DNA of 64,000 nt from the IMG/VR virus record IMGVR_UViG_3300004806_000019, positions 20,224 to 84,223 of that record. One strand, 5' to 3'. Below, in pieces: positions 6,482 to 54,000 of this stretch. Numbering within the stretch: the stretch's first letter is position 1; each line of letters begins with the position of its first letter. The position numbers and the translations under genes were made by a program. This DNA is from a virus. The notes under the pieces were generated by a model. It had not been told where the DNA came from. It did no database searches and saw only the letters and a program-made list of their open reading frames with translations.

Positions 6482-6482
6482 G

Positions 6483-19867: not shown

Positions 19868-20668
19868 GTGATCAAGAAACGCAGTCAAGCTGAAATAGAT
19901 TTTGCACTTGAGCTTTATAATGAGCTTGGTAGCGCATACAAAGTTGCCACTCGTATGGGCCTATCAAACAAAGCGGTCTATCGTATGCTTCACGATGCTG
20001 GTGCAGATATTCCTGGTTGGACAGATCCTAAACCGCGAAAACTAAAGTTTGATGGGGATAGCGCGAAAGCAGTAATAGAAGACTATTTATCTGGCATGTC
20101 TTGGGCTGATATGCGGGTAAAATACGGGGCCGCTGACTATGCCATGCGTGAGTGTGTTCGGAGAGCAGGGATAAAACTTCGGGATCATGGCGGTCAGCGC
20201 CGCAGAATTACAGATCAGGAAGAACAAGAAATTGTTGGCTTGCTGAAATCTGGATTAAAGCAGGTTGCGGTATCTGCAAAGTTTGGTTGTCACCAAGGTA
20301 TCGTAAGCAAAATCGCCATTAAGCATGGAGTATCTGACGGTCGAAAAGCGTCTGGTGAAAGACATGGAAGCTGGAAGGGTGGGGTTGTCAAAAATGGCGA
20401 GGGATATGTTTTGGAGAGGATTTATCCAGACGATCCTAATTTCGGCATGGCGGGGCGCAGCGGGTACGTCCCACAGCATCGTTTGGTTATGGCTAGAAGT
20501 TTGAGGCGCAATATTTCGCCATATGAATCTGTCCACCATATCAATGGTGATAGAACAGATAATCGCCTTGAAAACCTTCAGCTTAGATATGGCAAGCATG
20601 GCAAAGGTGTTGTTCTTACCTGTCGCTGTTGCGGCTCTCATGACATAGAGGCATCTAATCTTGACTGA
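19868..20668 (+). CDS. HNH endonuclease (free-standing homing type) with N-terminal HTH repeats
   Basis: WKGG...GY, HRLVM, VHHINGDRTDNRLENL. Confidence 0.85.
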   Translation: MIKKRSQAEIDFALELYNELGSAYKVATRMGLSNKAVYRMLHDAGADIPGWTDPKPRKLKFDGDSAKAVIEDYLSGMSWADMRVKYGAADYAMRECVRRAGIKLRDHGGQRRRITDQEEQEIVGLLKSGLKQVAVSAKFGCHQGIVSKIAIKHGVSDGRKASGERHGSWKGGVVKNGEGYVLERIYPDDPNFGMAGRSGYVPQHRLVMARSLRRNISPYESVHHINGDRTDNRLENLQLRYGKHGKGVVLTCRCCGSHDIEASNLD

Positions 20669-28806: not shown

Positions 28807-29160
28807 ATGGCTTCTTTAACTAAGATTGTTTTAAGTGGCGCGACTTACGGGGCGCCGATTCCTGTTGCGGGAACAACGATAACATCGCCTACGACGATCC
28901 ACACTTCGATTAATACGACAACTGCGGGGTTGGGTGATGAGGTCGTTCTCTACTGTGCAAACGTCGATACCGTTTCGCATACGTTGACGCTTGGAATCGG
29001 TGGGACGGTGACGGCTAACTTGGCTTATTTCATCGTTGCAGCGAATACAACGGCCCAAGTTCTTCCGGGGCATCTGCTTCTAAATGCACAGATTTTATAT
29101 GCCGTGTGTGACGTGACAAATAAAATGAATGTGTTTGGCTACTGCATTAGGTCTTCGTGA
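28807..29160 (+). CDS. Small tail-fibre adaptor/accessory protein
   Basis: DEV.LY..N.D motif; follows the fibre gene. Confidence 0.65.
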   Translation: MASLTKIVLSGATYGAPIPVAGTTITSPTTIHTSINTTTAGLGDEVVLYCANVDTVSHTLTLGIGGTVTANLAYFIVAANTTAQVLPGHLLLNAQILYAVCDVTNKMNVFGYCIRSS

Positions 29161-29231
29161 GTCATTATGGACGAACTCTCTCTACAATATGCGGCATCAC
29201 GCCTTTATAGCAAACAATATGGGGGTTTGCT

Positions 29232-29891
29232 ATGGCTACTAGCGTAACCTACAATACTCTGGTTCAGGACGTTCAGGCATATCTGGAGCGTGGCGCATCC
29301 TCTACGACTGATGCAACGGTTACGGCGCAGATCCCAAGGCTTATCAACGCAGCAGAGCGCAAGCTGGCTCAAATCCTCAAGCTTCTAGGTCAGATTGAGG
29401 TTTTATCTGACGTAACAGGACTCACTCCGGGGAATCCCGTTATTCCAAAGCCTGACAGGTGGCGCCAGACTGTATCTATGAATTATGGGGCAAGCTCGGA
29501 TTCTAACTTTAGAACGCCCTTGTTTCCTAGAAGCTATGAATATTGCAGAACATATTGGCCGGATGACTCCCTGACTTCTCCGCCAAAGTTTTACGCTGAC
29601 TATGGGTATACATCGTGGCTTATCGTCCCGACGCCTGATGTCACCTACCCCTTGGAGATCACTTGCTATATGCAGCCTCCTTTGTTGGATGCGAATAACC
29701 AATCTAACTTTTGGACGATATATTGCCCGAATGCTCTCCTTTATGGGACACTGGTTGAGGCAATGCCCTTCCTGAAGAATGATGAACGTATTCCTGTTTG
29801 GGAAAATATGTATAAGGCGGAGATCGCCACATTAAGCGGTCAGGATCTGCAACGGCAAATGGACCGGGCATCAGAGCGGAGGACCGTCTAA
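29232..29891 (+). CDS. Tail tubular protein A-like adaptor
   Basis: TY..L..D...YL.R, IP..I..AE, P.FYA.Y, .PTPD..Y, P.ALLYG.L.EA..FLK. Confidence 0.8.
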   Translation: MATSVTYNTLVQDVQAYLERGASSTTDATVTAQIPRLINAAERKLAQILKLLGQIEVLSDVTGLTPGNPVIPKPDRWRQTVSMNYGASSDSNFRTPLFPRSYEYCRTYWPDDSLTSPPKFYADYGYTSWLIVPTPDVTYPLEITCYMQPPLLDANNQSNFWTIYCPNALLYGTLVEAMPFLKNDERIPVWENMYKAEIATLSGQDLQRQMDRASERRTV

Positions 29892-30761
29892 ATGGCTGGG
29901 GGAAATTTTACAAATGTCTTCGGCGGTCAGGTAGTCCGACCTTCTCAATTGAGTTATCAGTCTATAACGATGTCGAGCAATACGACCTTGTTATGGCCTA
30001 CAGAGAGTTTGGAAGGCGCGGTTTATGTTGCCTCTGAAATCGATGTGACTGCAACGGCAACGCATTTGGCTTTGCTAATGCCGAGTGCTTTGATTGCAGC
30101 AACGGGACCGGCGACGACGATAACGAATGTCGGAACGAATACCTTCTCTGTTGCAGATAATACGGGGAACACAATCGTTAACATCGCTAGTGGTCAGGCT
30201 TGGATTATCACTCTCACGTCTAATACGACACAAGCGGGGACGTGGAGAACTTTACAGTTAGGATCAACGACGACTTCGGCGGTGGCTTCTCAGTTGGCCG
30301 ATGGGATTACGACTCAAGCCACAACACTGAACACGCTTCAGGTAGCTGAGTTTGTAAATACGTATTCCAATAGTGCCTTGCTGACGGCGGCAGTAAGGGG
30401 TGGTTGTTCGGTATTGGCTTCTGGTTCTGCTGCATCGACTTTTCAGATGGATTTGATTTTTAACCTTGGGGCTGGCTGGTATCAGGACATCGTAAATTTG
30501 AGTGGCAATACGTTGACTTTGTCGGGGTCATCGGGGCAGTTATTAAACTCGGCGCCGACCTTTGCGATGAGTGCTGGATCTTCAGCTAGGGTAATTGCGG
30601 GGGCATCATCGTTTACGGTTATCAACAATGTGAATGTGTCTGCGTTTGGTGTGGTAAATTCTGTTTTAGGGGGCAGCGGTATTCTTGCTTCAGGATCTAC
30701 CGTGATAACTGTAAGTGTGATTGATAACTACATGGAGTTGGCGCCGATATGGTGGCGCTAG
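29892..30761 (+). CDS. Tail fibre/spike-like structural protein
   Basis: S/T-rich beta protein following the adaptor. Confidence 0.65.
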   Translation: MAGGNFTNVFGGQVVRPSQLSYQSITMSSNTTLLWPTESLEGAVYVASEIDVTATATHLALLMPSALIAATGPATTITNVGTNTFSVADNTGNTIVNIASGQAWIITLTSNTTQAGTWRTLQLGSTTTSAVASQLADGITTQATTLNTLQVAEFVNTYSNSALLTAAVRGGCSVLASGSAASTFQMDLIFNLGAGWYQDIVNLSGNTLTLSGSSGQLLNSAPTFAMSAGSSARVIAGASSFTVINNVNVSAFGVVNSVLGGSGILASGSTVITVSVIDNYMELAPIWWR

Positions 30762-30785
30762 GATAGATAGATAAAGGTAACGGTT

Positions 30786-31172
30786 ATGAGTGATCGTCAG
30801 ATAGGTCTGAATGTAGTCTTAGGACAACCGATAGCCAGCGTTGGCGTCAACGGTGTCGGCTACCTGAGCATTCCCCAGAACTCTCAGAACGCCGGTTATA
30901 CCTGTGTCCTTGGTGACGCGGGGTATCACATCTATATGGCGACGGCGGGGACATTCACGATCCCGTCAAACGCGAGTGTGGCCTATCCGATTGGAACGGT
31001 GATTGCCTTCGTTAACCTGTCAGCATCCTCCAGCATCGCCATCACATCCGATACGATGTACCTGATGGGGTCTGGGTCTACCGGTACACGTACTCTAGCC
31101 CAATACGGCTGTGCGACGGCGCTAAAGACCGGCACAACCACATGGATCATCTCTGGTACAGGGTTAACTTGA
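30786..31172 (+). CDS. Tail-fibre adaptor domain protein
   Basis: IPQNSQ...YT.VL.D.G.HI, TIP.N.SVA.PIGT, RTLA.YG.ATA.K, W.ISG.GLT. Confidence 0.75.
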   Translation: MSDRQIGLNVVLGQPIASVGVNGVGYLSIPQNSQNAGYTCVLGDAGYHIYMATAGTFTIPSNASVAYPIGTVIAFVNLSASSSIAITSDTMYLMGSGSTGTRTLAQYGCATALKTGTTTWIISGTGLT

Positions 31173-31173
31173 T

Positions 31174-34100
31174 ATGTCAGGGGTAACTTCCGCATTACTC
31201 TGGGGCGGCAAAGCACCGGCAGCAGTGGGTCTGTTGGCGTGGGGGAATAATTCTTATGGTCAGCTAGGTCTTGGGAATACGACTTATTATTCAAGTCCTA
31301 AACAAGTTGGAGCGTTAACAAACTGGTCTAGCATTGTTGGTGGCGCCTATCATGGTGTTTCTATAAAGTCTGATGGCACTCTATGGGCGTGGGGATTAAA
31401 TCAATATGGTCAATTAGGTTTAGGAAATAGAACTTATTATTCCTCTCCAAAGCAAATCGGCGCTTTAACGAATTGGTCAAAAGTTGCTTGTGGCGGAAGG
31501 TTTACGACGGCCATTAAAACTGACGGAACCCTATGGACTTGGGGGTTTAATAATAATGGTCAACTTGGTTTAGGAAATAGAACTTATTATTCTTCTCCAA
31601 AGCAAATCGGAGCTTTAACTAATTGGTTAAAAGTCGCTTGTGGGTACTATCACACAATAGCGATAAAAACAGACGGAACACTATGGACTTGGGGACTAAA
31701 TCAATATGGTCAGTTAGGTTTAGGAAATATCACGAATTATTCTTCTCCGAAACAAGTTGGATTATTAACAAACTGGTCCAGTTGCGCTGGAGGGCAATCT
31801 CATACAATTGCCATTAAAACAGATGGGACTCTATGGACTTGGGGGTGGAACATTTTTGGTCAATTAGGGCTTGGAAACATTACGAATTATTCTTCTCCGA
31901 AACAAGTCGGCTTATTAACAAACTGGTCCAGTTGCGCTGGAGGGCATTATCATATAGTGGCAATTAAAACAGACGGCACCTTGTGGTCCTGGGGAAGAAA
32001 CAATTTTGGTCAATTAGGGCTTGGAAACATTACGAATTATTCTTCTCCGAAACAAGTCGGCTTATTAACAAACTGGTCTAGTTGCTCTGGAGGGCAATAT
32101 CATACAGTTGCCATTAAAACAGATGGGACTCTATGGACTTGGGGGTGGAACATTTTTGGTCAGCTTGGTTTAGGAAATATAACTTATTATTCCTCTCCAA
32201 AACAAGTTGGATCTCTTACTTCATGGGTAAAAGTCGCTTGTGGTTTTAACCAAACCCTCGCCATAGGCCGCCCCGTCCCCGTTGGCCTGATGTCGTGGGG
32301 GTATAATGGTTCTGGGCAGTTAGGTTTAGGAAATACGACTTATTATTCCAGTCCTAAAGCTGTGGGACAGTTGACGAACTGGTCAAAAATAGCAACAGGT
32401 AATACTTTTGTAGCTATAAAAACTGATGGGACACTTTGGGTTGGGGGATGGAATAATAATGGTCAATTAGGGCTTGGAAACATCACTTATTATTCTTCGC
32501 CTAAACAGGTTGGGGCATTGACTAACTGGTCTAGTGTGGCTTGCGGTCAATCCTCTACGGCAGCAATTAAAACTGACGGCACCTTGTGGTCCTGGGGAGG
32601 GAATCAATACGGTCAACTTGGTCTTGGAAATACCACAAGCTATTCAAGCCCCAAACAGGTAGGTGGTCTAACTAACTGGTTGGCTCTCGCTTGTGGTGAA
32701 TACTTTGCTATTGCCACCAAGACTGATGGCACATTATGGGCGTGGGGGCAGAATAATAGCGGTCAGTTAGGTCTTGGGAACAGAACCCATTATTCTTCTC
32801 CTAAACAAATAGGCGCTTTAACAAATTGGTTAAGTGTTGCCTGTGGGAACTATTACGTTTTATCAATTAAGACTGATGGATCTCTATGGGCTTGGGGTCA
32901 AAATAACTATGGTCAATTAGGGCTTGGAAATCAGACTTATTATTCTAGTCCCAAGCAAGTCGGTGGCCTGACGAATTGGTTAAAAGCTGTCCCTGGTGGT
33001 GGATACTTTGCTATTGCCACCAAGACTGATGGAACTTTATGGGCTTGGGGAAACAACCGATACGGCTCGTTAGGTCTTGGGAACATTACGAATTATTCTT
33101 CTCCAAAGCAAATCGGAGCTTTAACTAATTGGTTAAAAGTCGCTTGTGGGAGCTATCACGTTTTATCAATTAAGACTGATGGATCTCTATGGGCTTGGGG
33201 ATTAAATAATTATGGTCAATTAGGGCTTGGAAACATTACGAATTACTCCTCCCCCAAGCAAGTCGGCTCCCTCACCACATGGCAGAACGTCGCCTGCGGG
33301 CATTTTTCTGTCCTCGCCACGATAGTCCCCGTATCGCCGGGGCTGGCGGCTTGGGGGCAGAATAATTATGGTCAGCTAGGTCTTGGGAATCGGACTTATT
33401 ACTCTTCGCCTAAACAGGTTGGAGCGTTAACTAACTGGTCTAGCATTGCTGGCGGCATCTCTCATGTTGTTTCTATAAAGTCTGATGGAACCTTGTGGGC
33501 GTGGGGGGCTAATAACAATGGTCAGCTAGGTCTTGGGAATCGGACTTATTATTCAAGTCCTAAACAAGTTGGCGTTTTAACGAATTGGTCAAAAGTCGCT
33601 TGTGGGTACCTTAGCACAATGGCGATAAAAACTGACGGAACCTTGTGGGCATGGGGTCAAAATGCCCTTGGACAATTAGGGCTTGGGACCATTACGAATT
33701 ATTCTTCTCCAAAGCAAATCGGAGCTTTAACTAATTGGTTAAAAGTCGCTTGTGGGTACTATCACACAATAGCGATAAAAACAGACGGCACTTTATGGAC
33801 TTGGGGGTATAACTACTATGGTCAGTTAGGTTTAGGAAATATAACTTATTATTCCTCTCCGAAACAAGTCGGCTTATTAACAAACTGGTCCAGTTGCGCT
33901 GGATGGCAGTATTTTACAGTTGCCACCAAAACAGATGGCACTTTATGGACTTGGGGTCAAAATGCCTATGGTCAATTAGGGCTCGGAAACATTACGAATT
34001 ATTCTTCTCCAAAGCAGGTTGGAGCGTTAACTAACTGGTCTAGCATTGCTGGCGGCATCTCTCATGTTGTTTCTATAAAGTCTGATGGAACCTTGTGGTC

Positions 34101-34395
34101 CTGGGGGTATAATAACTTAGGTCAGTTAGGTTTAGGGAATCGGACTTATTATTCAAGTCCTAAACAAGTTGGCGTTTTAACGAATTGGTCAAGCGTTGCT
34201 TGTGGCGGAAGGTTTACGACGACCATTAAAACTGACGGAACCTTGTGGGCATGGGGTCAAAATGCCTATGGTCAATTAGGGCTCGGAAACATTACGAATT
34301 ATTCTTCTCCAAAGCAAATCGGAGCTTTAACTAATTGGTTAAAAGTCGCTTGTGGTGGATATACTACCATCGCCACCTTTGGGGTAATGACGTAA
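31174..34395 (+). CDS. RCC1-repeat protein, 21 blades (3 x 7-bladed propellers), probable receptor-binding protein
   Basis: 21 copies of an approximately 50-aa DG.LW.WG.N..GQLGLGN.T.YSSPKQ.G.LTNW repeat, with Pro-rich linkers after blades 7 and 14. Confidence 0.9.
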   Translation: MSGVTSALLWGGKAPAAVGLLAWGNNSYGQLGLGNTTYYSSPKQVGALTNWSSIVGGAYHGVSIKSDGTLWAWGLNQYGQLGLGNRTYYSSPKQIGALTNWSKVACGGRFTTAIKTDGTLWTWGFNNNGQLGLGNRTYYSSPKQIGALTNWLKVACGYYHTIAIKTDGTLWTWGLNQYGQLGLGNITNYSSPKQVGLLTNWSSCAGGQSHTIAIKTDGTLWTWGWNIFGQLGLGNITNYSSPKQVGLLTNWSSCAGGHYHIVAIKTDGTLWSWGRNNFGQLGLGNITNYSSPKQVGLLTNWSSCSGGQYHTVAIKTDGTLWTWGWNIFGQLGLGNITYYSSPKQVGSLTSWVKVACGFNQTLAIGRPVPVGLMSWGYNGSGQLGLGNTTYYSSPKAVGQLTNWSKIATGNTFVAIKTDGTLWVGGWNNNGQLGLGNITYYSSPKQVGALTNWSSVACGQSSTAAIKTDGTLWSWGGNQYGQLGLGNTTSYSSPKQVGGLTNWLALACGEYFAIATKTDGTLWAWGQNNSGQLGLGNRTHYSSPKQIGALTNWLSVACGNYYVLSIKTDGSLWAWGQNNYGQLGLGNQTYYSSPKQVGGLTNWLKAVPGGGYFAIATKTDGTLWAWGNNRYGSLGLGNITNYSSPKQIGALTNWLKVACGSYHVLSIKTDGSLWAWGLNNYGQLGLGNITNYSSPKQVGSLTTWQNVACGHFSVLATIVPVSPGLAAWGQNNYGQLGLGNRTYYSSPKQVGALTNWSSIAGGISHVVSIKSDGTLWAWGANNNGQLGLGNRTYYSSPKQVGVLTNWSKVACGYLSTMAIKTDGTLWAWGQNALGQLGLGTITNYSSPKQIGALTNWLKVACGYYHTIAIKTDGTLWTWGYNYYGQLGLGNITYYSSPKQVGLLTNWSSCAGWQYFTVATKTDGTLWTWGQNAYGQLGLGNITNYSSPKQVGALTNWSSIAGGISHVVSIKSDGTLWSWGYNNLGQLGLGNRTYYSSPKQVGVLTNWSSVACGGRFTTTIKTDGTLWAWGQNAYGQLGLGNITNYSSPKQIGALTNWLKVACGGYTTIATFGVMT
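31230..34375 (+). repeat. Approximately 150-bp coding tandem repeat array
   Basis: Identical or near-identical DNA blocks, e.g. 33421/34021, 33961/34261, 31801/32101. Confidence 0.9.
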
Positions 34396-34413
34396 TTCAA
34401 CGAAGGAGTTTTT

Positions 34414-36189
34414 ATGAACAAGACACTGCATTTCCTTAGTGGTATCCCCAGAAGTGGGAGCACTGTGTTAGCCGCCATTCTTAATCAAAACCCGCTAACC
34501 CATGTCTCTACCACCTCTGGCCTAGTACACGCCTTGGATGGGCTTGCGAATACGTGGCACTCAGGTCCACTTCTTGTAGACAAAGACCCGGATCATAAGC
34601 AGCTTTGCGCGGCTATGCGGGGCGTGATTGACAATTTCTACACCGATACCGACAAGCCCGTCATTATCGACAAGTCAAGAGGGTGGCCGATACCGATTAT
34701 TATGGGGGCGATGACGCAAGTGCTTGGGAGAAAGCCTCGTATCATTGCAACGGTCAGGTCGATCCCAGATTGCGCGGCGTCTTTCATTCGGGTTGCTAAA
34801 CCCCAAGATCTGGACAAGTTCATCGCTGACGGTCAGTTGATGGAGCATCTGAAGGCGGCTTACATCTCTCTGCAAGAGGGCTGGCAGGCTGCACCAGAGA
34901 ACTTCCTGATTGTTGAATATGAAGACCTGTTGGCTGATCCGAAAGAGGTCTTGAACAGGGTCCATGCTTTCCTTGGGCTTCCTGACTTCACCTATGACTT
35001 TGAGAATATCGACGGGGAGCCTGTTAAGGAAGACGACGAGAACCTTCACGGCTATGCTGGGATGCACGACATTAAGCCGAAGCTGGAACACCAGCATAAG
35101 CAGCATCCGAGAGATGTCCTGAAGGAGCATTATGGGAGCTTCTGCCAGCCTGAGTTCTGGTTGGATAAGCCCAGGACGATCCCTGACATCTCTGATCTTG
35201 ACCTCCAGCTTGTGGCGTCACGGACAGGGGACTTTGAAGAGGGTTGGCGTCTGGCGCAGAAGATGGAACGGGAGATCCCGAATAACCATCGTGCGGCTTT
35301 CAACCGTGGCTGGTATGCGCTTCGACAGGGCAAGATCCAAGAGGGCTATAAGCTGATGGAGCGCGGCAGATATGTACAAGTCTTTGGAGATCCGCCACCG
35401 GATGCGCCAACGAAGCCTTGGGACGGTCTGGCGAAGGGCATTGTGCTATTGAACCTTGAGCATGGGCTAGGTGATCAGATCCACCAGATCCGCTTTGCCA
35501 AGCATATTGCCAAACGGGCTGGTCGGTGCGTTGTGTCTTGCGCGGGTCAATTGGCGTCCTTGTTTGTGGATGTTGAGGGGGTTTCTGCTGTCGTCCAGAA
35601 AGAGGCCAACTTCGGTATCTACCATGACTTCTACGTCCAGGGGATGAGTGCAATCCTGCCGCTTGGGTTTGAACTGCCTGACATTACGGGTGAGGCTTAT
35701 ATCAGGAAGCCGAATGTCATTCGTGGCAAGAAGTTCCGCATTGGCCTGCGCTGGCTTGGTTCCACTCGCTTTGAGCCGGATCATGTGAAGAGGTTCCCCC
35801 ATGAACTGCTGTTCAATGCGGTCAAGGACATTCCTGACGTTGAGTTCGTAAGCCTCCAGAGGGATGAGGGTGCCGAGCATCGCCCCTATTGGTGCCGTGA
35901 GGTTCCGCTTCAGTCTTGGGAGGATACGCGCAATGCTGTCGCCTCCTGTGACTTGGTGATTTCGTCCTGCACCTCTATCTCTCACTTGTCAGCAGCGATG
36001 GGCGTTGAGACTTGGGTTATCACGCCAATCATGCCATACCACTTATATGCGCTTGATGGCGAGAAGACTCCTTACTATGACCATATGCGCCTGTTCAGGC
36101 AGGAAGTGTTTGGGGAGTGGGAGCATCCCTTCATCAACATAAACAAACGACTGATGGAACGGTTCAGTTCCAAGATGGCAGCGGAATAG
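34414..36189 (+). CDS. Sulfotransferase - degenerate TPR - GT-B (GT9-like) fusion
   Basis: PAPS-binding SGIPRSGSTVL, DKSR.W, R......AS, YEDL; then EHGLGDQI...RF, IGLRW.G, TSISHLSAAMG, TPYY..MRLFRQ. Confidence 0.85.
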   Translation: MNKTLHFLSGIPRSGSTVLAAILNQNPLTHVSTTSGLVHALDGLANTWHSGPLLVDKDPDHKQLCAAMRGVIDNFYTDTDKPVIIDKSRGWPIPIIMGAMTQVLGRKPRIIATVRSIPDCAASFIRVAKPQDLDKFIADGQLMEHLKAAYISLQEGWQAAPENFLIVEYEDLLADPKEVLNRVHAFLGLPDFTYDFENIDGEPVKEDDENLHGYAGMHDIKPKLEHQHKQHPRDVLKEHYGSFCQPEFWLDKPRTIPDISDLDLQLVASRTGDFEEGWRLAQKMEREIPNNHRAAFNRGWYALRQGKIQEGYKLMERGRYVQVFGDPPPDAPTKPWDGLAKGIVLLNLEHGLGDQIHQIRFAKHIAKRAGRCVVSCAGQLASLFVDVEGVSAVVQKEANFGIYHDFYVQGMSAILPLGFELPDITGEAYIRKPNVIRGKKFRIGLRWLGSTRFEPDHVKRFPHELLFNAVKDIPDVEFVSLQRDEGAEHRPYWCREVPLQSWEDTRNAVASCDLVISSCTSISHLSAAMGVETWVITPIMPYHLYALDGEKTPYYDHMRLFRQEVFGEWEHPFININKRLMERFSSKMAAE

Positions 36190-36198
36190 GAGAAGAAA

Positions 36199-36768
36199 AT
36201 GGGTTTGTGGGTTCAGGTTCAAAACAACCAAGTGACGGCTTGCATCGACACGCCTCCGGTCACGACGAACGATCCGAATTGGAAACCGGCTATTGAGATC
36301 AAGCCAGCTTTGAAGCCCTATGTTGAGTATTACGGGCAGGCTGTTTTTGATACGACGCAGAACCCGGTTACGATCACCTATCCGGTTCTTGAGTGGGATT
36401 CAACGACGGCTGCAAGGAATGAGGCTGACGCGAAAGCACAGGAAGCGAAGCAGGCTTATGCGTCTGCTATTGCGAATGGTCTGATTATTACGTCTGCTTC
36501 GACGCCTGCGATCAATGGGACTTACGCTCTTGAAGATAGCGATATTGCTAACCTCAATGCAGAGGCAAGCTTCATCAGCAATTTCCAAGAGTTCACGACG
36601 ATGAACACGAACGCCCTGCCGTGGATCACCATGACGGGCGTTGTGACCTTCCCGTCCCTGCCGTCGTTCATGTCGGTTGCTAAGGCTGTGGCTCAGTACG
36701 TCTCTGCCTGCAAGCTGGCGGCGAATGGCATTGGGACGTTCCCGGCTAACACGGTACAAGTGCCGTGA
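36199..36768 (+). CDS. Tail fibre assembly-like protein (DUF4376-like C-terminus)
   Basis: AGGAG SD; follows the fibre cluster. Confidence 0.55.
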   Translation: MGLWVQVQNNQVTACIDTPPVTTNDPNWKPAIEIKPALKPYVEYYGQAVFDTTQNPVTITYPVLEWDSTTAARNEADAKAQEAKQAYASAIANGLIITSASTPAINGTYALEDSDIANLNAEASFISNFQEFTTMNTNALPWITMTGVVTFPSLPSFMSVAKAVAQYVSACKLAANGIGTFPANTVQVP

Positions 36769-36776
36769 TAGAAAGG

Positions 36777-36917
36777 ATGCGAAAGAGGCTTGGCCTTCTG
36801 TTTGAGGAGCATAAGAAGCTGGAGGAAGAAATCCAGCTTCTCCTTGAACAGATAAAAGCTCTGGAGCATGAAGAGTATTCCCGTCGTCATCAGCTTGATG
36901 AACTCTGCCCGGACTGA
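36777..36917 (+). CDS. 46-aa coiled-coil peptide
   Basis: MRKRLGLLFEEHKKLEEEIQLLLEQIKALE... fills the intergenic gap. Confidence 0.45.
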   Translation: MRKRLGLLFEEHKKLEEEIQLLLEQIKALEHEEYSRRHQLDELCPD

Positions 36918-36922
36918 AGATT

Positions 36923-38515
36923 ATGAAGCTTGGAAAACTGCCTGCCGTTGTTGATCCGAAAGTCCCGGTATTTTCCAGAGCTTGCACTCCTCCTGTCCCT
37001 CCGGTAACGGCTGATTGGTGTTCAAAGGTCGCAGACTGGCCTTTGGATAAGAATGACACGGTGGGGGACTGCACGATTGCGGCGGCTCAACACTTGATCC
37101 AGGCATGGACGACTTATGCCGGGAACCCGGTGATAGTGTCTGAGGCTGACGTGTTAGCAGCGTATTCTGCGATCTCTGGATATAACGGGACGCCTGCGAC
37201 GGACGTTGGGTGTGTTGAGTTATCGGTTCTGAAATATTGGCAGGCGACGGGGATTGGGGGCCATAAGATTAACTCGTTTGCGGCTCTTAACATTGCCAAC
37301 CTGAATGAGATCAAGGCTGCGATTAATTGGTTCGGGGGAATTTATATCGGGGTGAGGTTGCCGATTTCGGCACAGACGCAACCGGCTGTCTGGGATGTCG
37401 TTCCGGGTTCAACGGGGATACCTGGATCGTGGGGAGGACATGCTGTTTGTGTCCAGTCTTATGATGCGACAGGCATAACCGTCATCTCGTGGGGCAAGAC
37501 GATCAAGATGACGTGGGCTTTCTGGCTGGCCTATGTTGACGAGGCGTATGCGGTTGTTTCGACGGATTTCTTGAATGCACAGGGTGTTGATCCGCAAGGG
37601 TTGACGCTGGCTAACCTCATCGCTGACGAGGCTCTCCTTGCTGCTAACGTGTCAGGACCGAGTGATGCCCTGGTGACGTTTATCAATGCGGCGACTGCGC
37701 CTTCAAGTGGCGTGGGTGCTTTATTGGCTCCTAACCTTCTTCTGACTGCCGCGCCTGAGATGGCTCTTGGCGGGATTAACTTCCCTATCTTGGCGGGTGG
37801 GACTCAGGTTGATGGCGTGACGGCGGTTCAGGCTGGGACGAGGTATGCGCTTGGGTTGCTGTCCACTCCCTATATGTGCAGCGGATATCTTGGGTACATG
37901 TCAGGATGGAGCGGCGGTCAGGCGACGATAGCTTATGGGAACAACCAGTTTGCGAGTCAGGTGTTTGCGCCTGACTTTACGACGACGGTTCTTGCTAATA
38001 GCGCGGGTGGTCTGGTGATCGTTGGTACGTCTATAGTTGGCGTGATGATCACGACAAGTTCGGCTTATATCTTTAGCTCTGCCGACATTGACCAGATAGA
38101 GAGTTTCATCACGACCCTGACGGGGGCGGCTCCTGCGATAGTCAGGTTATATGGCGGGATCTTAGGGCGTTACCCGACGATAGCTGAGAACCAGTGGTAC
38201 ACGAAGAACCTGTATCTTCCTGCCTATAACGCGTCACCAGGATCTGCGTTGCATGTGCTGGGAAACAATCTTGGTATTCTTTACTGCTTTACGCACTCGC
38301 CAGAGTTCATGGGTGGGAGTAGTGGTTATGGCAAAGACCCAGTAGCCTATGTGACATATTTGTACCAGAATGCCTTGGGGCGCTCTCCTTCTACTAGTGA
38401 GCTTACTTGGTATGTGGCACAATTAAAAAGCCGTGATCTCTGGGATGTTGTCGCACTGAACATCACTCAGAGCGATGAGGCCAGAGCTTACAACGGTGTT
38501 TGGAATCAGCAATAA
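36923..38515 (+). CDS. Papain-like (C1-type) cysteine peptidase + degenerate trypsin-like domain + DUF4214-like domain
   Basis: ND.VGDC, GGHAV, ISWG; ALLAPNLLLTAAP; YVTYLYQNALGRSPS..EL.WY. Confidence 0.7.
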   Translation: MKLGKLPAVVDPKVPVFSRACTPPVPPVTADWCSKVADWPLDKNDTVGDCTIAAAQHLIQAWTTYAGNPVIVSEADVLAAYSAISGYNGTPATDVGCVELSVLKYWQATGIGGHKINSFAALNIANLNEIKAAINWFGGIYIGVRLPISAQTQPAVWDVVPGSTGIPGSWGGHAVCVQSYDATGITVISWGKTIKMTWAFWLAYVDEAYAVVSTDFLNAQGVDPQGLTLANLIADEALLAANVSGPSDALVTFINAATAPSSGVGALLAPNLLLTAAPEMALGGINFPILAGGTQVDGVTAVQAGTRYALGLLSTPYMCSGYLGYMSGWSGGQATIAYGNNQFASQVFAPDFTTTVLANSAGGLVIVGTSIVGVMITTSSAYIFSSADIDQIESFITTLTGAAPAIVRLYGGILGRYPTIAENQWYTKNLYLPAYNASPGSALHVLGNNLGILYCFTHSPEFMGGSSGYGKDPVAYVTYLYQNALGRSPSTSELTWYVAQLKSRDLWDVVALNITQSDEARAYNGVWNQQ

Positions 38516-46970: not shown

Positions 46971-48098
46971 ATGGTTGGGATGTTAAACGCAATTGCTGGC
47001 AGATATCATTATGATGAAGGCGGCTCTACTGGAGATGACGACCAGCAGAGAGGTCCACTCTCCACTTATGACCCGTCTGTTCTTGGCAATATGCAGAATG
47101 CAGTCCTAGGGGGAACACCTGAATCTGCCTTGCAGAAATATAAGGATGCCCAATCAGCACAGGAAGCAGCGGCCCAAGCAAAGAAGGATCGTATCCAACA
47201 GGCAATGGATACACTGAGTGCAAATCGCTCCAATCTCCCGATGATGGCTTTTGGCGCAGGGATGATGAAGCCAACCCACACTGGCACGTTTGGCGAAACA
47301 CTTAGTAATGCAATGAGCGATACAATCCCCGCCATTGATAAGCAGCGTCAATATGAGGCGCAGCTTCAGCAGATGGGGGTTTCAGCGGCTGACGTTGATC
47401 TGGCCCAGAAGACTAAAGCGGCCCAAGATTGGACAGACCGGATGAAGCTTGGGTTGACTACGGCAGAAACAAACCAGAGATTGCAGCAAAGTGATCAGCA
47501 ACATCAGGATTCGCTTAATCTTCAGAGGCAGCAGCTTCAAGGACAAAAAGGATATTATGATTATTTGAAGCAAGAAGACCCTGACGAAGTTTCCTCATGG
47601 GTGCCATTGTATGAAAAACCGGGCGTTCAAAAGATGGACCCTGTAAGTGGCTTGCCGTTATATCAAGGCATGAGCAAAACAGAGAAGCCCGTCGGTCAGC
47701 CTCGGATTGTTAGAAGTGATGATTTGGATAGCAGCAATACAAGTTCCCGTGCAGATCCGATTATTTCGCAGTATAATTCGGCTCAGAAGGCGCTTGATGC
47801 TGCTATTAGCAAAAGGTACGTTATATTAGGATCAAATCCTAAAGCCGATACGAAAATGTTAGATGAGCAAATCGCTCGTCAAAGAGAGCTTGTTGAACAA
47901 TTGAGAGTTGCGGCTACGACAAGGTTGGGAGGCTCAACCACAACGCAGCCTGTATCGCCGGATCCCTTAGCGGCAGGATTAGGGGGAAACGGAAGTGTTC
48001 CTTCTAAGAAGCCAAACATTGATCCTGGCATATATTCTCCTTCTCAAGAAGCAGCTAGGTCTGGAGCATTTCCCGCCCCACAGCCAGGAATTGATTGA
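46971..48098 (+). CDS. Ejection/internal virion protein
   Basis: GAGGG SD; FG.GM..PT.TG.FGE motif; Q-rich helices. Confidence 0.65.
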   Translation: MVGMLNAIAGRYHYDEGGSTGDDDQQRGPLSTYDPSVLGNMQNAVLGGTPESALQKYKDAQSAQEAAAQAKKDRIQQAMDTLSANRSNLPMMAFGAGMMKPTHTGTFGETLSNAMSDTIPAIDKQRQYEAQLQQMGVSAADVDLAQKTKAAQDWTDRMKLGLTTAETNQRLQQSDQQHQDSLNLQRQQLQGQKGYYDYLKQEDPDEVSSWVPLYEKPGVQKMDPVSGLPLYQGMSKTEKPVGQPRIVRSDDLDSSNTSSRADPIISQYNSAQKALDAAISKRYVILGSNPKADTKMLDEQIARQRELVEQLRVAATTRLGGSTTTQPVSPDPLAAGLGGNGSVPSKKPNIDPGIYSPSQEAARSGAFPAPQPGID

Positions 48099-51000
48099 TG
48101 CCTGAAGATCGCGCAGATGCTCCCCTACCGGAATCAGTGGACATTTCGGAGGCTACTCCTGCACCTGTTATAAACTATGTTAATTACACTCCCGCCCCGA
48201 CTCAGGCGCCAATAAAATCATCATTGCCTCCTTTGACACCGCGTCCAACAGAAAAGCCAGCACAAGGTCTTCCGTTAGACGTTGTTAAGCAGAAAGTGGC
48301 AAAGTTAAAAGATGCCGGTTATTCGCAGGATGAGATTGCTGAATCTCTTATGAAGAATCCTTTTTTCGGCCCTCGTATATCTGAGGCGGCTGATAAAGGA
48401 TGGGAATATCCAGAAATTTTTTCGAGATTTGGCCTCGATGGATATGATCCAACGGAAGGTGGTCCGTTAAAGACTCCATGGCGATATGTCAAAGCAGGCG
48501 TTGAATCTGCTGGGGAAATGATTGGAAACACTCTCCAGGGCGGAGCTATCGCTTCAGACCGAAGATCTTTATATGCTCCATATTATGAGGACTACACCTC
48601 GTTTAAGAGCAAGTCTCCTGAAGAGCAGCAGCAGATTCTTAGTAAGATCGCTAATAGTGATATGGACTTGGAGGCCAGACAGAATCTTACAAAAGAGTTC
48701 CGCAGGCTTCAAGAGGGGGCAAATCCTAGACAATTTGACATGCTGGCAAATCAGCCAGTTGAACAATTGCCTGGATACAAAGTTGGACAATGGTTCAAAG
48801 ACACCACACAGGGACTGCTTAATCCTGAAGAGGAAAAGCTAACTGGCGTTAGGATTGCTAAAGCTGCTGCCCCTATCGTTCCTGCTATGGCTGCAACAGC
48901 ACTTGCCGGTCCTGCTGGCCCAATGGCTCTGTTTGGCGGGTCTTCTTATCAAGAGGGTTATGAGAAGGCAAAAAAGGTTGGCGCCTCAGAAGAAGCTGCC
49001 CGTGACGCTGCTATGAAAGAAGCCGGTATTGGTGCTGCCGCTGGTGTTCTGGATGTTGGAGCCATATTAGGCCCAATAGCAAAATACTCTCCTGAACTCC
49101 TTAATAGGGCGCAAGCAATCCTTTATAAAGGTATTCAAAGCGGTGTCATTGGAAGTTCAGTCGGAGAAGCTCAAAAGTGGCTGAATGCTCAGATTGAACG
49201 CACAACTTATGATCCAAATGCACAATATAAATTTGATCCGACAGAAGCTGCGATTGGATTTGCAGGGATGGCAATTCCAGGTGCAGTTCATGGGGCATTC
49301 CATGAGCAAGCCCCAAAAGAAACCGCTCCGACAGGAACAGATATTCCTCATCCATCATTGATTGCCCATGCTTATTGGAGGATTGATGAGCTTGAGTCTA
49401 TCTACAATGGAACAGAGGGAAACCCTCCAAGGGATCTAACTCCTGCTGAAGCTGCCGAATACGCATTTCTTCAGAAGAACAAAAATAAGCCCGAAGAGCT
49501 TTCTAAAGTGATTCGTGGGACTGAGCCTTCTGAGCAACCGGAGCCGACTCAAGCGCCAACAGTTACGCCAGCCCCAACTGTTTCTAAATCTAATAAGCCT
49601 CCGAAAGCGACAAAGGCTCCTGTGCAGGCTGAGATACAAGCTCAACCTGAAGCGCAAGTTCAACCGGAAACACAGGATAAGGTTCAAGAGGCTGCTAACG
49701 CCCTTGTCGAAGAGGCAAAGCAGAATCCTACGGTTACAACACCTGAAAAAGATAGTGATATCTCCGCTCAAATTAAGGAGATGATCAACCCAAACAACCC
49801 GAGAGATTCTGTCTACATTGCTCCAGGGAATGAGCATGAAATCCCTGTCAGTGCTTTAGATCATCCAGGTGTTGAGCTTGCTGAAAATCCCGTTAGTAAG
49901 GCTTTGTTGCTAACGACCAATATGGACAAAGCCATAGATTTTCAGAAGAACAGAGATCTCACAGAAGAAGAGAAAGCCAATTTGCTGGGTCTTTCTCAAC
50001 CCAAAACTGAGGCGTTAAAAGATCCTAATGCTGTCGTCGTTCAAGGGAAGAATGAGGATGGCGCTATTGTTCATCAGGAGCTTACCTCACAGGATAACCT
50101 GCCTAACTCTGTAGAGAACACAGCGAATAGGACTCCTGAAACTGGTCAAGTTGAAGTCGCCAGCACAACAGGAGCGCAAGCCCATAGAGTTGGTGGTGAT
50201 GATCAAGCTGTTCCTGTGGCAAAAGGAAAGGTTCCGACTCCCGATCCTGAGATACAGATTGCTGAGATCCGTAAGCAGATTGAATCATTTGAAGAACATC
50301 GGGATCAAGCTCTTGAAGTTGGGGATACTCCTACGGCTCAGAATTGGCATAACCGTATAAGGGAGGCTAATGAACAAATAGCCGAGCTTCAAAGAGGTCA
50401 ACCGTTAGAAAAAGAGCCAGCAGTTCAAGAGAGTGAACCCGCTTCTCCGCAGGCTCCGTCAACCGATATTCCTTGGGAAAATCATTATCAACGAGCAGTT
50501 GATGTCGTTGGGAGCGAGAGTTTCCCGCTTAAAAGCAAACCACTTGCAGATAAGCTTGGGGTTGATGAGGCTATGGCAACAAGGCTTTTACAAGCCATGG
50601 CGTCCAGGGGAGCTATTAGGCAAACAAAGAATGGTGGGTTTTCACGAAATCCAGATAGAGGCCCGTTAGACTTTCTTACATTCTTGGCAGCAAAGGGAGG
50701 TCTTCGGGATGATGAAGGCCATCTTCTTGCTCAAAGTATGGACGCTCAGAGGATGGTTCCGAATTACGGACCTTTAATCCGTAAGAATGGAATGGGGATT
50801 GATCAGGCAGGGGAAGCTTTGTGGCAGGCCGGATATTTTGGCCCGACTGATTCTACGCCAAGGCCAACAGAGACAGAAGTATTAAACAAGCTAAGTGAAG
50901 CCCTGAATGGGAGACTTCCTCTTGAAGAGCGGTATTCTGAATATGACCGAGATCGGGTGCAAAAGATTCAGGACACCAAGACCGCTAAAGATCGGGAGAA

Positions 51001-54000
51001 GCTTGAAAAAACAGCTAGGGCTGACATTGAGAAGCTTAATGAAGAAAAGACATATGGATTAACCCCAGAAGAAAAAGCTAGAGCGATTGAGCTTTTGGTT
51101 GAGCATCCAGAGGATTTCTCTCCAGAGGAGGCTGTTGTTCACGTTCTCGATACGTCAATGATTGAGGATCTTCATGGGGCTATTGACGTAGCAAGGGATG
51201 CACATGATGACGAGTTTTCCGATATACCGTTTGAGTGGCCAGCAGAGGTTGAACCTCCTCAACGAGGCGAAGAGGAGGGTAAAGGGACAGAAGTCTCTAT
51301 CCCCACTTCAGAGGAGGAATCTGGCACGGTTGGCAAAGAACCTGGAGAAGGTGAACGCCAAGATCTCCGTGACAAAGAAATAGGTGATGTCATTGGTGCA
51401 GGGGAACGGACAGCCCCACCAATGGACAGAGAGCGTCAGCAGGCGGAAATAAGGGCGCGACAGGCAGGTAAGAAAAGAAGCGGAAAAGAACAAGAAGAAC
51501 CGGGCGGGATGTTTGCCACGGAAGAAAAGGGGTTATTTTCCGAACCGAAGAAAACCGCTGATTATGGAACTCAGAATAAGGTCATTACAGCAGACGCGGC
51601 GGAGAAAGCTAGAGAGCTTCTTCGCAAGAAATCAAATCAGATTAATGCTGGTATTGACCCTGAAACCATGTTGGCTGGTGTTACGCTTGCTGCCTATCAC
51701 ATAGAGGCAGGAACAAGAAAGTTCGTAGATTTTGCAAGGGCTATGGTTTCTGATGTCGGCGCATGGATTAAGCCGTACCTGAAGTCATGGTATAATGCGA
51801 TCCGCGATTATCCGGGGTTGGAGGAAGCTGCCAAGGACATGACGCCGCATGAAGAAATGAATGCGGCCATGGATCAATTGGAAAGGGAAGGCTATGTATC
51901 AAGCGAATCCAGAGGTCTGGAACAAACTGGCGAGGGACCAAAAACTGAAAACGCCATGGGCAAAGAGGCTCTTCCCACTGAAGAGAGAGGAGCTTCACAA
52001 GGCGTTAGAGAAAGAAACGGAGAAGCTGAAGCAAGAGGGAATAACAAGCCCTCAAGTGAGGAGCAGCTTCCTTCAGATGGCGCCTCTTCTGTGGGAGAGA
52101 GAGGCAATAGCGAAAGAGACGCAGGAGAACCCGGCTTTGGGGCAGTGCCTGCCGAACGTGGAGGACGCCCAGGAGGCTACGATGTTAGCCAGCATGGACC
52201 GGCCATTGAGCATATCGAACCAGAAGAAGTTAATAAAACTGCTGGAGACTCCAAGACAGTAGCTCAGAGGTTTGCAGAGCAGAAGATTGCAAACTCTCGT
52301 CCAGTTGTCTGGAACGATATTAATAACATCAGAGAGACATTACCCGCTCTATTCCCTGATCAACAAGATGATGTTCATAAGTCTGAAAAACGTCTGAGTG
52401 TTGCTCATGGGATTATGATTACCAACGGAACTGGCACCGGCAAGACATGGAGTGCTGGTGGTGTAATCGCTAGATTTGTCCGTCAGGGAAAAGAAGACAT
52501 TCTTGTTGTTGCCCCCTCTCAGGACATCCTCACTGATTGGAAAGCTGCCCTTAAACATCTTGGTGTCGATGCCTCCGTTTTAGAAGGGACGCAGAAGTCT
52601 GGTAAGGGCGTAACACTTACTACCTATGCTAATCTTGGGGAAAATCGCCATATAGCGGATCGGAACTGGCATTTAGTTGTCGCAGACGAAAGCGATAATC
52701 TTATGTCAGATCAAAAAGGGAATACCACAAAAGCTCTAAATAGCTTCAGGGCGATCACGAACCATCCCGACGCATTGTATATTAGAGCGGATATGGCTTT
52801 GAGGGATCTTAATGATCGTGTTGCAGATCTCTCAGAGCGTGTTCATAAAAATTATAACAACAAAGAACTGACCTCTCAGTGGATAAACGCCCAGAGAGAG
52901 CTTGAGCAAAAACGCAAAGAGTTGGTTGATGTATACAAAGATCAACCGCGATCAAAGGCTATATTCCTTTCGGCCACTCCATTTTCATATGACAAAACAA
53001 CTGACTATGGAAATGGCTATCTGTTCGATTATCAAAAAGAAGGTAATAGAAGTGGGTATAACGTAGCTGAAGGTCGTAACCTTTTTATGGTTCAGAACTT
53101 TGGCTATCGGATGAGAAATGGGAAACTCACGGCTCCAGAAGCAAATGTTAATAGTGAGGTTCTTGAAAGAGATTTTCATGAACGCCTGAAGAAAGAAGGG
53201 GCTTTGATCGGGAGACGGTTGGAGGTTGATTCTGACTATGATCGTAAGTTCATATTAGTTAATGACGCTATTGGGAATAACATTGACCGGCTTCTTGAGT
53301 TTTTGCGTGAATCTGATGACGGGAAATTCCGTCCGATCTATTCATTCGTTAATGATAGATTTGATTATCTTTCAAGGCAGAGGTTGCTTGAGGCAATCAA
53401 GGCCAATCACGCAATCCCTATTATTCGGGAACACCTTGCTCTTGGCAGAAAGGTTGTTGTCTTCCATGACTTCAATGAAGGTGGTGGATTCCATCCTTTT
53501 GATACGAGTGAAATTCCAAATAACCCTGTCTTTGTTACCGTCAATGGAAAGTCACATGAGTTCAATTTAAAAGACCTCGCAAACGAATTTCACGACAGGA
53601 ACCCTGACGCAATAAAAATGGACTTCTCATCTATGAAAAGTCCGATTGAAACGATGACCAAGGCTTTTCCAGAAGCTCTTGTCTACAATGGAACGGTAAG
53701 TTCCAAGAACAGGGCCACCATCAAGCAACTCTTTAATCAAGATGGTTCTGGCAGAGATGTCATTGTTATTCAATCGGCTGCTGGTAGAGCGGGAATAAGC
53801 CTGCACGACACAACGGGAGTCCATCAAAGGGTTTTAATTAATCTTGGTATGCCCACTCGGCCAACAACCTCAATTCAACAAGAGGGGCGCATTTATCGTA
53901 CAGGGCAAAAGTCCGATGCAATGTTCCGGTATATGAATACTGGCACAGCATGGGAGCGGGAAGCATTTGCCAGTAGGATTGCTGAACGGGCAAGCTCAGT

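Follow-up and report, generated by a model that had tools for sequence, protein, structure and literature searches.

Proteins built of RCC1 repeats are known from UVR8, HERC1/2, RPGR and RCC1 itself, all with the seven-bladed propeller fold. Those encoded by phages are usually annotated as 'regulator of chromosome condensation' and left unexplained. A role in the condensation or packing of DNA has been proposed for phage RCC1 proteins (excerpted text of PMC7247149). The gene described here (31174..34395, + strand) encodes such a protein. It is located in a window of 64,000 nucleotides (nt) of viral DNA, which represents bases 20224-84223 of the 84,223-bp IMG/VR virus record IMGVR_UViG_3300004806_000019, a metagenome assembly rated complete by CheckV. 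Coordinates are window positions, L-labels denote related metagenome or virus loci, and X1 to X4 denote sequencing runs. The protein belongs to the same repeat family as UVR8, HERC1/2, RPGR and RCC1, and its variable positions correspond to interface residues of UVR8. It differs from these proteins by carrying three propellers in one chain and no other domain, and by blades that are far more alike; neither the guanine nucleotide exchange factor activity of RCC1 (on Ran) nor the photoreceptor activity of UVR8 is expected of it. Its place in a tail-fibre locus, an aromatic-rich variable face and the replacement of propellers in related phages point to host recognition rather than to DNA packing. 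On balance the protein is probably, though by no means securely, a mosaic triple-propeller host-recognition protein at a tail-fibre locus, with a patchwork that arose by in-register recombination without a dedicated diversifier.

Four other described systems are close to this locus in one respect or another. Among highly repetitive propellers, RCC1/BLIP-II was reported as the third largest group, its members being mostly bacterial and in a few cases viral, and BLIP-II as a secreted binder (Pereira & Lupas 2022, PMC9218822, excerpted text). In contrast to that group, the protein described here is repetitive as protein only, and recent identity of its DNA is confined to patches. Propeller repeat units are also exchanged in the WD40 domains of the fungal NWD proteins HET-D and HET-E, in which a few variable residues per repeat lie on the interaction surface (Paoletti et al. 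2007, PMC1805685, excerpted text). These belong to another repeat family and another biology; the fungal repeats are near-identical as DNA and vary in number among alleles, whereas the blades studied here are only 51-89% identical as DNA. Mosaic tail-fibre genes of phages, such as gp38 of Pseudomonas phage PollyC, are similar in their tail-fibre position and, as seen in relatives of the window, in a conserved start, a replaced distal part and sharp boundaries. The window protein differs from them by the lack of an N-terminal fibre domain, by exchange that also takes place within one gene, and by a conserved enzyme gene that is embedded between propeller genes. Targets of diversity-generating retroelements (DGRs), such as Mtd of Bordetella phage BPP-1, are phage host-recognition proteins with variability focused on the binding surface. 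The window gene stands in contrast to them and is not a member, with no reverse transcriptase, no template repeat and variation that is not adenine-directed. A tail-fibre island in which RCC1 propellers form the variable part, combined with a conserved enzyme resembling tyrosylprotein sulfotransferases (TPSTs), was not found in the literature searched, and the linkage of RCC1 genes to this enzyme is undescribed there; highly repetitive RCC1 propellers, a few of them viral, are already in print. One further paper (PMC12906663) was set aside, as its 26 occurrences of 'RCC1' are culture-collection strain numbers.

The frame is open over 1073 amino acids (aa) and contains 21 blades. The RCC1 family (PF00415) matched in 21 stretches with 853.7 bits against a cut-off of 21.7, above the curated threshold, and the RCC1-like domain PF25390 with 959.4 bits against a cut-off of 150. 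The anchor SSPK occurs 21 times at a spacing of 49-52 aa, and proline-rich linkers behind blade 7 (GRPVPV) and blade 14 (IVPVSP) divide the blades into 7+7+7, the arrangement already read from the letters in a first-pass annotation. An N-terminal stretch of 18 aa (31174..31227), delimited by blade parsing and with predicted local confidence (pLDDT) below 50 for residues 1-20, is followed on the + strand by propeller 1 (blades 1-7, 31228..32283, linker at 32266-32283), propeller 2 (blades 8-14, 32284..33339, linker at 33322-33339) and propeller 3 (blades 15-21, 33340..34395). Blade 21 ends the protein, with nothing C-terminal of it. Propellers 1 and 3 are 80% identical in aa sequence, and each is 69% identical to propeller 2. 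The AlphaFold2 model, built from 24 aligned homologues (pLDDT 69.9, predicted template modelling score, pTM, 0.41), shows most blades as four-stranded, the strands spanning positions 2-6, 21-26, 33-38 and 42-47 of the blade. Among solved structures UVR8 is the best match (E 3e-65), followed by HERC1/2, RPGR and RCC1 (1A12, E 7e-33). Seven four-stranded blades per propeller are consistent with the linkers, the model and the homology to UVR8. The G+C content is 0.65-0.71 in the linkers and about 0.43 in the blades, as first noticed by eye, and the high value is due to codons for Pro, Gly, Ala and Val. Proteins with several RCC1 propellers are abundant, with E<=0.001 for 7975 of 7999 scored candidates. 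Two further motifs are nearly constant: N-x-T is present in 20 of the 21 blades (20 blades have Asn at column 17 and all 21 have Thr at column 19) and Y-S-S-P-K in 21/21; they could be structural or could be repeated modification sites.

Within the 50-aa blade, variability is highest at columns 7, 9 and 10, in WG-x-N-x-x-G, and at columns 41-45, behind C/G-G; each holds 5-10 residue types. In 479 blades of 23 homologues variability peaks at the same columns, and Tyr is the commonest residue at four of them. In the model, the long C-D loop starts with positions 7, 9 and 10, the A-B loop consists of positions 39-41, and strand B starts with positions 42-44. In a four-strand meander, these strand positions bring the start of the C-D loop (7-10) and the A-B loop (39-41) to the same end of the sheet; by the same topology the opposite end should carry the invariant T-D-G turn (B-C) and the D-A loop. 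The HMMER alignment places position 7 on W94 of UVR8 and positions 41-42 on the W-R of GWRHT, and the residues of UVR8 that match variable positions are W94 and W233/R234. In the UVR8 dimer, W94 of one monomer is packed against W233, W285 and W337 of the other, and R286 and R338 hold the dimer together (PMC4501546, excerpted text). The roles of these residues in dimer contacts identify one interface face. Both the strand topology and the UVR8 alignment therefore support the placement of the two predicted variable loops on one face of the propeller. The first-pass annotation had named the two sites and treated a shared face as decisive for its proposal; the column counts fall on the sites that it had named, and the variable residues fall on one face. 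Over six variable positions in 21 blades, Tyr accounts for 24%, Asn for 13%, Gln for 11%, Phe for 10%, Ser for 9% and His for 9%. Tyr, Trp, Phe and His together reach 44% at variable positions, compared with 14% overall, and Asp, Glu, Lys and Arg together reach 4%. Such an aromatic-rich and nearly uncharged face suggests sugar binding.

The DNA of the blades is a patchwork. Exact repeats on the + strand link blade 3 to blade 17 (91 nt, 31586-31676 = 33698-33788, with loop 2 'YYHTI', and 58 nt recurring at 34298-34355), blade 15 to blade 19 (84 nt, 33415-33498 = 34015-34098, loop 2 'ISHVV'), blade 19 to blade 21 (65 nt, 33952-34016 = 34252-34316, loop 1 'QNAY') and blade 5 to blade 6 (75 nt, 31854..31928 = 32004-32078, on the scaffold between the loops); a further repeat of 55 nt, also in register, joins 31808-31862 and 32108-32162. 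Exact repeats of 30 nt or more number 24, and every one of them is in blade register. Each of the four pairs of recurring sub-blade positions listed at first pass falls within an exact repeat that is in register and measures 55-91 nt. The 65-nt and 84-nt repeats overlap by 2 nt in blade 19, which is a chimera, blade-21-like up to 34016 and blade-15-like from 34015. The pairwise homoplasy index (PHI) was 0.99, compared with 1.36 +/- 0.035 after permutation, and 0 of 1000 permutations gave a value as low. Concordant runs with p<=0.01 were found in 39 of the 210 blade pairs (500 site shuffles), the longest extending over 62 polymorphic sites against a shuffle maximum of 42. When each blade was painted by its best exact in-register match to other blades, with runs of at least 24 nt, the shared runs covered 1544 of 3165 nt. 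Blades 3, 5, 15, 17, 19 and 21 are almost wholly tiled by two or three other blades (111-138 of 150-153 nt in blades 15, 17, 19 and 21). Blades 8-12 contain 0-30 nt within such runs. Propeller 3 is the most mosaic of the three and propeller 2 has the fewest shared tracts. Coverage by shared tracts is lowest at loop 1 (4-6 of 21 blades) and highest on the scaffold between the loops (14-16 of 21). Blades 16 and 20 differ at codons 4, 7 and 10, with no synonymous change across codons 1-12.

These observations identify the patchwork as a true signature of in-register recombination or gene conversion between the blades. In this respect the exchange of repeat units known from the fungal NWD proteins is also found here, by the PHI and run tests and by painting. 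The loops are shuffled as well. Seventeen loop-1 and 18 loop-2 variants are combined into 21 different blades. Four loop-1 variants (LNQY, WNIF, QNNY and QNAY) and three loop-2 variants (GRFTT, YYHTI and ISHVV) occur twice, never in the same pairing. Recombination between blades and the re-pairing of binding loops had both been put forward from the letters alone, and both are borne out by the in-register repeats, the statistical tests, the painting and the loop pairings.

Close relatives of the window's own RCC1 gene were not found in the searches of phage records and metagenome contigs. Megablast of 29000-37000 against phage records gave no match, and an exact 33-nt pattern from the start of the gene gave 0 matches in metagenome contigs, so that no second assembly of the gene was found. 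Turnover was followed in more distantly related loci that share the enzyme gene located behind the RCC1 gene in the window. Fifteen pairs of such loci were compared, with A and B denoting the RCC1 genes upstream of the enzyme gene and C the downstream one. In 13 of the 15 pairs the enzyme gene is 89-95% identical in nt sequence, and RCC1 gene B is 63-70% and gene C 66-72% identical (86% in one pair). Where the enzyme genes are 92-95% identical, the value for most propeller genes is only 63-73%; the propeller genes of these relatives turn over much faster than the enzyme gene that lies between them. One pair (L075/L082) is near-identical throughout. In L076/L099 gene A, at 92%, tracks the enzyme gene (92%) and genes B and C are only 69-70% identical; in B and C the initial ~100 nt are kept and the bodies of the propellers have been replaced. 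This pair thus combines a conserved start with a variable distal part; the window gene is without a close relative for the same comparison. L057 and L059 are 100% identical over ~3150 nt, a stretch that takes in gene B and the greater part of the enzyme gene. Identity falls to 56-78% starting ~110-160 nt into gene C (L057 coordinates 3150-4260), with an island of 92-100% at 3660-3760, and past gene C it returns to 86-100% with one window of 68%. This is a sharp natural recombination boundary. In gene C of L080/L081, values of 66% and 100% alternate in 50-nt windows. Judged from these alignments, exchange at the level of whole propellers and below the level of the blade evidently does occur in nature between close relatives in this family. 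Between L004 and L006/L007, all five differences over 15 kb lie in the RCC1 genes. In five orthologous pairs, the ratio of non-synonymous to synonymous change (dN/dS) was 0.64-1.58 at the variable columns and 0.20-0.31 in the rest of the blade. A further observation concerns the N-termini of the B and C proteins of related loci (e.g., L079 5850-6000 and 8770-8950), which in many module proteins carry the motif ...SG-x-W-x-L...(Q/E)A...G-x-WP-x-P... before the propeller. This motif is absent from the window protein and may be a docking element.

The virus appears to be a freshwater, podophage-like virus, with the Caulobacter phages RW, GB2A, RLK and KcrB as its nearest cultured relatives by capsid; the capsid shares 77% identity with those of the four phages, and for Roseobacter and Pelagibacter phages the value is ~41%. 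The structural region of the window encodes a terminase, the capsid, a GP4-type fibre protein, an SU10-type adaptor, a lysozyme and a 3922-aa helicase/methylase-like protein. The tail module starts on the + strand with the head-to-tail adaptor gene (29232..29891; Pfam SU10_adaptor, 1.3e-25), 51% identical to gp070c of phage RW. It is followed on the same strand by the gene for a 289-aa protein (29892..30761), the first 147 aa of which match the N-terminus of the 789-aa post-adaptor protein of phage RW (gp069c) with 35% identity (E 5e-24) in a syntenic position. This protein is a probable tail-fibre anchor. A 128-aa open reading frame (ORF; 30786..31172, + strand), with a weak match to the C-terminus of the PHROG 'minor tail protein' phrog_8780 (6.3e-8), stops 1 nt ahead of the RCC1 start codon. 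A programmed frameshift fusing this ORF to the RCC1 frame was considered; the junction resembles ordinary stop-start coupling. In phage RW the order is adaptor, 789-aa protein, gp068c. In the window the adaptor and the 289-aa protein are followed by ~9.3 kb without RW counterpart and then by a gp068c homologue at 40077 (40% identity). The insert contains the 128-aa ORF, the RCC1 gene, a 591-aa enzyme gene, genes for DUF4376 and DUF4214 proteins, and three small ORFs. By gene order, the RCC1 gene sits in a variable island of ~9 kb in the tail-fibre locus, located between a fibre-anchor-like gene and the next conserved structural gene at 40077. A conserved fibre start with non-homologous material behind it is the usual signature of a host-range region. 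A foreign origin of the RCC1 gene was not supported by base composition; its G+C content at third codon positions is low (0.367), yet inside the range of the other genes (0.326-0.621).

The partner enzyme (591 aa, 34414..36189, + strand) matches Pfam Sulfotransfer_3/1 and is predicted to consist of a TPST-like sulfotransferase domain, TPR helices and a GT-B-like domain. With a profile of the enzyme family, the best matches among solved structures are TPST2 (E 1e-5, 27.6 bits) and TPST1. The model has pLDDT 63.6, and its top ten Foldseek matches are all tyrosylprotein sulfotransferases (E 5e-8 to 1e-6); later matches include other sulfotransferases, SPINDLY (TPR + GT41) and GT9 enzymes. The sulfotransferase-TPR-GT-B build is therefore assigned with moderate confidence, and for the substrate of the predicted sulfotransferase the structural matches give only a lead. 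Relatives of the enzyme were found at at least 80 marine and freshwater metagenome loci with 64-75% aa identity, and among the matches listed 76 of 80 such loci contain RCC1 propeller genes. Where enough flanking sequence was available (22 loci), two RCC1 genes are upstream and one downstream of the enzyme gene in 15, one is upstream and one downstream in 5, and one is upstream and none downstream in 2. The synteny from the adaptor to a gp068c-like gene persists in related loci at only 24-30% identity, and the enzyme is far more conserved. By comparison of these layouts, the window gene is a fused, three-propeller form of a module, widespread in aquatic phages, in which two or three single-propeller RCC1 genes flank the enzyme gene. 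An attempt to match each of propellers 1-3 with gene A, B or C of the relatives gave no traceable orthology, as the aa identity is 48-63% whatever the position. Directly behind the enzyme gene lies that of a 189-aa protein with Pfam DUF4376 (36199..36768, + strand); its N-terminal 65 aa are kept right after the downstream RCC1 gene in L035, L045, L060, L076 and L099 (38-40% identity, tblastn).

Similar associations are found in other phages. Cyanophage BUCT-ZZ01 carries, in this order, a tail fibre gene, a 166-aa gene, a gene for a 700-aa RCC1 protein and a homologue of the C-terminal half of the enzyme. The linkage of RCC1 and enzyme genes is found in marine virus AG-345-E08 too. In L034, which has the closest enzyme relative among the matches listed (75%), a tailspike gene (pectate-lyase-like + Peptidase_S74) is followed by a 547-aa gene and then by that of an RCC1 protein. 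In Pseudomonas phage PollyC, gp38, at the position of gp17 of phage T7, has RCC1 repeats (87 bits) and a weak match to the T7 fibre N-terminus (23.1 bits, under the cut-off of 25.2).

According to the mechanism favoured here, the scaffold of each blade sets the fold and is held by strong purifying selection, and the two exposed variable loops per blade, the C-D loop start (7, 9, 10) and the A-B loop (40-44), lie on the same face. This face would bind a structure on the host surface, most likely a glycan, and the protein would act as a host-recognition or adhesion component working with the tail fibre. Attachment to the virion via a neighbouring protein is possible; a complex prediction for the 289-aa protein, the 128-aa ORF and RCC1 residues 1-380 scored 0.00 and gives no verdict either way. 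Homologous recombination or gene conversion in register, with tracts of 24-91 nt, is overlaid on otherwise old blades, re-pairs loop-1 and loop-2 variants and has turned propeller 3 into a partial copy of propeller 1. Between phages that are otherwise near-identical, propeller genes have been replaced or patched. The data show the anatomy, the mosaic, the topology of the variable face, the gene order, the linkage to the enzyme and the turnover in relatives; attachment to the virion, the ligand and the enzyme's role are inferred.

A number of observations weigh against this interpretation. Pfam and PHROG searches gave no virion-anchor domain in the N-terminal 18 aa. The RCC1 protein encoded ahead of the enzyme gene in L034 (5774-6991, 405 aa) has a twin-arginine translocation (Tat) signal, with 23.4 bits against a cut-off of 22.7, and an export signal of this kind is not an obvious fit for a part of the virion. 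In cyanophage S-SRM01 (L114, 224777-237484), two RCC1 genes lie amid genes for a TPR protein, a 2OG-Fe(II) oxygenase, a sulfotransferase, a beta-1,4-glycosyltransferase and a nucleotide-sugar epimerase, that is, among glycan-modifying and not tail genes. In the five orthologous pairs, dN/dS at the loops exceeds 1 in one only, the closest, with 2.5 synonymous and 15.5 non-synonymous differences. When L010 was compared with the near-identical L011 and L012, the RCC1 genes held 1 of 31 and 2 of 12 differences, respectively. The mapping of the loops to one face combines strand topology and homology with the moderate model described above. The blade order across the 65-91-nt repeats is that of one short-read assembly, and in the contigs of four runs no population variation was seen for the RCC1 gene.

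The first three of these observations fit an alternative that is rather unlikely and still has to be taken seriously, namely that the RCC1 protein is not the receptor-binding protein of the virion and is instead a substrate or working partner of the enzyme. It could, for example, be sulfated or glycosylated in the cytoplasm and then act on or in the host envelope, by receptor masking, superinfection exclusion or envelope modification. The tight linkage to the enzyme gene across lineages, in the 76 of 80 listed loci and in S-SRM01, BUCT-ZZ01 and AG-345-E08, also favours it, as does the fact that the nearest solved relatives of the enzyme, the TPSTs and then SPINDLY, are protein-modifying. However, the RCC1 gene lies between fibre-anchor and virion structural genes on one strand, RCC1 repeats are part of a tail-fibre gene in PollyC, and the preserved first ~100 nt with a replaced body, as seen in relatives, is the usual build of a phage receptor-binding protein. 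An export signal was not seen in the window protein by eye, no predictor having been applied. The two explanations are also compatible, since a modified protein could still be part of the virion. A more specific proposal, held to be doubtful, is that the enzyme sulfates and/or glycosylates the propellers in the cytoplasm, with the Tyr-rich variable face, N-x-T and Y-S-S-P as candidate sites; host recognition would then be set by the modification, and the enzyme gene would double as a homology anchor for the exchange of cassettes. To our knowledge, no phage receptor-binding protein has such a post-translational modification. Co-occurrence of GT41 genes with the module was seen in 0 of 5 viral records with module-like RCC1 spacing, and the count is uninformative since these records are fragments, 7-63% complete.

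An artefact of short-read assembly through the repeats, possibly with mixing of strains, is an improbable source of the patchwork or at least of the blade order. The record is a metagenome assembly, and its exact repeats of 55-91 nt are longer than common k-mer sizes. The window stretch is present in thirteen freshwater or lake runs, and in eight of these at least half of its words were recovered. For four runs the Logan contigs were compared; rare variants are lost from such contigs, and a single campaign may have produced the runs. In all four, the contigs break inside the gene. The flanking contigs end at 31615 and 34326, and the RCC1 gene itself is represented by short pieces only. Joints between contigs have sides of only 20-35 nt, and the Logan contigs, which break at the repeats, do not bridge them. 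One X3 contig has a cluster of ten base differences at 33499-33534, and all ten match blade 20, so that the contig goes from blade 15 via the 84-nt repeat into blade 20. It represents either a path switch in the assembly graph or a variant with a deletion of 600 bp; the path switch is favoured because a third propeller of three blades is unlikely. On the other side, assemblers permute paths at shared words and cannot create words; with the 2-nt overlap of the two repeats in blade 19, the chimeric junction must have been present in the reads and cannot be an invention of the assembler. The frame is open over 1073 codons with exactly 7+7+7 blades and proper linkers, and mosaics of the same type are present in independent contigs of related phages. 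Pieces of the gene also recur across separate runs with 0 differences (in X1, X2 and most of X4), among them a piece of 716 nt (32169-32884). The contig data speak weakly for stability and not at all for shuffling. The claim that shuffling is ongoing in this phage is therefore not upheld, as the pieces of X1, X2 and X4 show 0 differences and X3 fits repeat ambiguity.

Far less probable is a dedicated and active diversity generator, comparable to DGRs or to the assembly of lamprey variable lymphocyte receptors, that shuffles the blades at a high rate in every phage generation. Sub-blade tracts in register, loop variants reused in new combinations, and changes confined to loop codons in otherwise identical DNA (blades 16 and 20) would be in keeping with it. 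However, reverse transcriptase (PF00078) gave 0 matches in the whole 84,223-bp record, with controls that responded, and none was present in the Pfam scans of the window ORFs. Neither template nor donor copies were detected, as searches with blastn-short, an nhmmer blade profile and a protein blade hidden Markov model found no blade-like DNA or protein outside the gene; any exchange is therefore strictly intragenic. The absence of variation in X1, X2 and X4, the scarcity of shared tracts in propeller 2 and the synonymous saturation of most blades (see below) also stand against it. The first-pass annotation was thus right that diversification is independent of reverse transcriptase, and its comparison to repeat-based immune receptors failed for want of any sign of a dedicated mechanism. 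Homologous recombination of the ordinary kind, acting on repeated DNA together with selection, is a sufficient explanation, as in other tail-fibre genes of phages.

On average the blades are old, and they were not recently amplified. Synonymous sites between blades are saturated, with a proportion of synonymous differences (pS) of 0.70 by the Nei-Gojobori method; in this respect the near-identity of repeat DNA reported for the NWD genes is not shared. The scaffold has dN/dS 0.05. The loops have a proportion of non-synonymous differences (pN) of 0.55, and dN/dS of the loops between blades of this gene is not computable owing to the synonymous saturation. The scaffold had been called almost invariant, which is correct for the protein (20 of 50 columns are invariant) and incorrect for the DNA. 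The blade consensus AIKTDGTLW-WG-N--GQLG ... SSP-Q-G is common to 23 homologues from other organisms and, together with the saturation, indicates that the likeness of the blades is mainly due to constraint and not to youth. A 91-nt exact run cannot last on such a background, so that only the identical patches are recent. Propellers within one locus of related phages are 55-57% identical; compared with this, the 80% of propellers 1 and 3 indicates that exchange within the gene has partly homogenised the two. That the likeness stems from recent amplification of a single blade and later point divergence, without recombination, as the high aa identity of the blades and the report of recent amplification for highly repetitive RCC1/BLIP-II propellers (PMC9218822, excerpted text) might suggest, is hardly credible against the saturation, the shared consensus, the rejection of a single tree by the PHI and run tests, and the two parents of blade 19. 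A 'highly repetitive' propeller need thus not be recently amplified, as constraint with patchy gene conversion looks alike. If the favoured interpretation is true, aquatic phages would commonly use RCC1 propellers as a modular scaffold for host recognition, one that would be useful for the prediction of host range.

Other features of the window include two adjoining TPR-glycosyltransferase genes on the - strand (5240-8246). One encodes TPR and GT41 domains (PF13844, 3.4e-53) with a weak NCBIfam match to an N-glucosyltransferase, the other TPR with a weak GT9/heptosyltransferase match; together with the 591-aa enzyme, the window contains three TPR-linked transferase-like proteins. The 3922-aa ORF (48095-59863), which closes the structural operon, has ResIII/helicase and methyltransferase-like domains and matches PHROG 10691 and a DarB-like antirestriction PHROG; it may encode an ejected anti-restriction protein. 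An HNH endonuclease with an HTH domain is encoded inside the structural region (19868-20668), and the capsid genes are preceded by a Cpn10 (GroES)-like gene (10018-10479). A protein with a class-3 lipase domain is encoded at 62497-63222, near the lysozyme gene (60227-60661).

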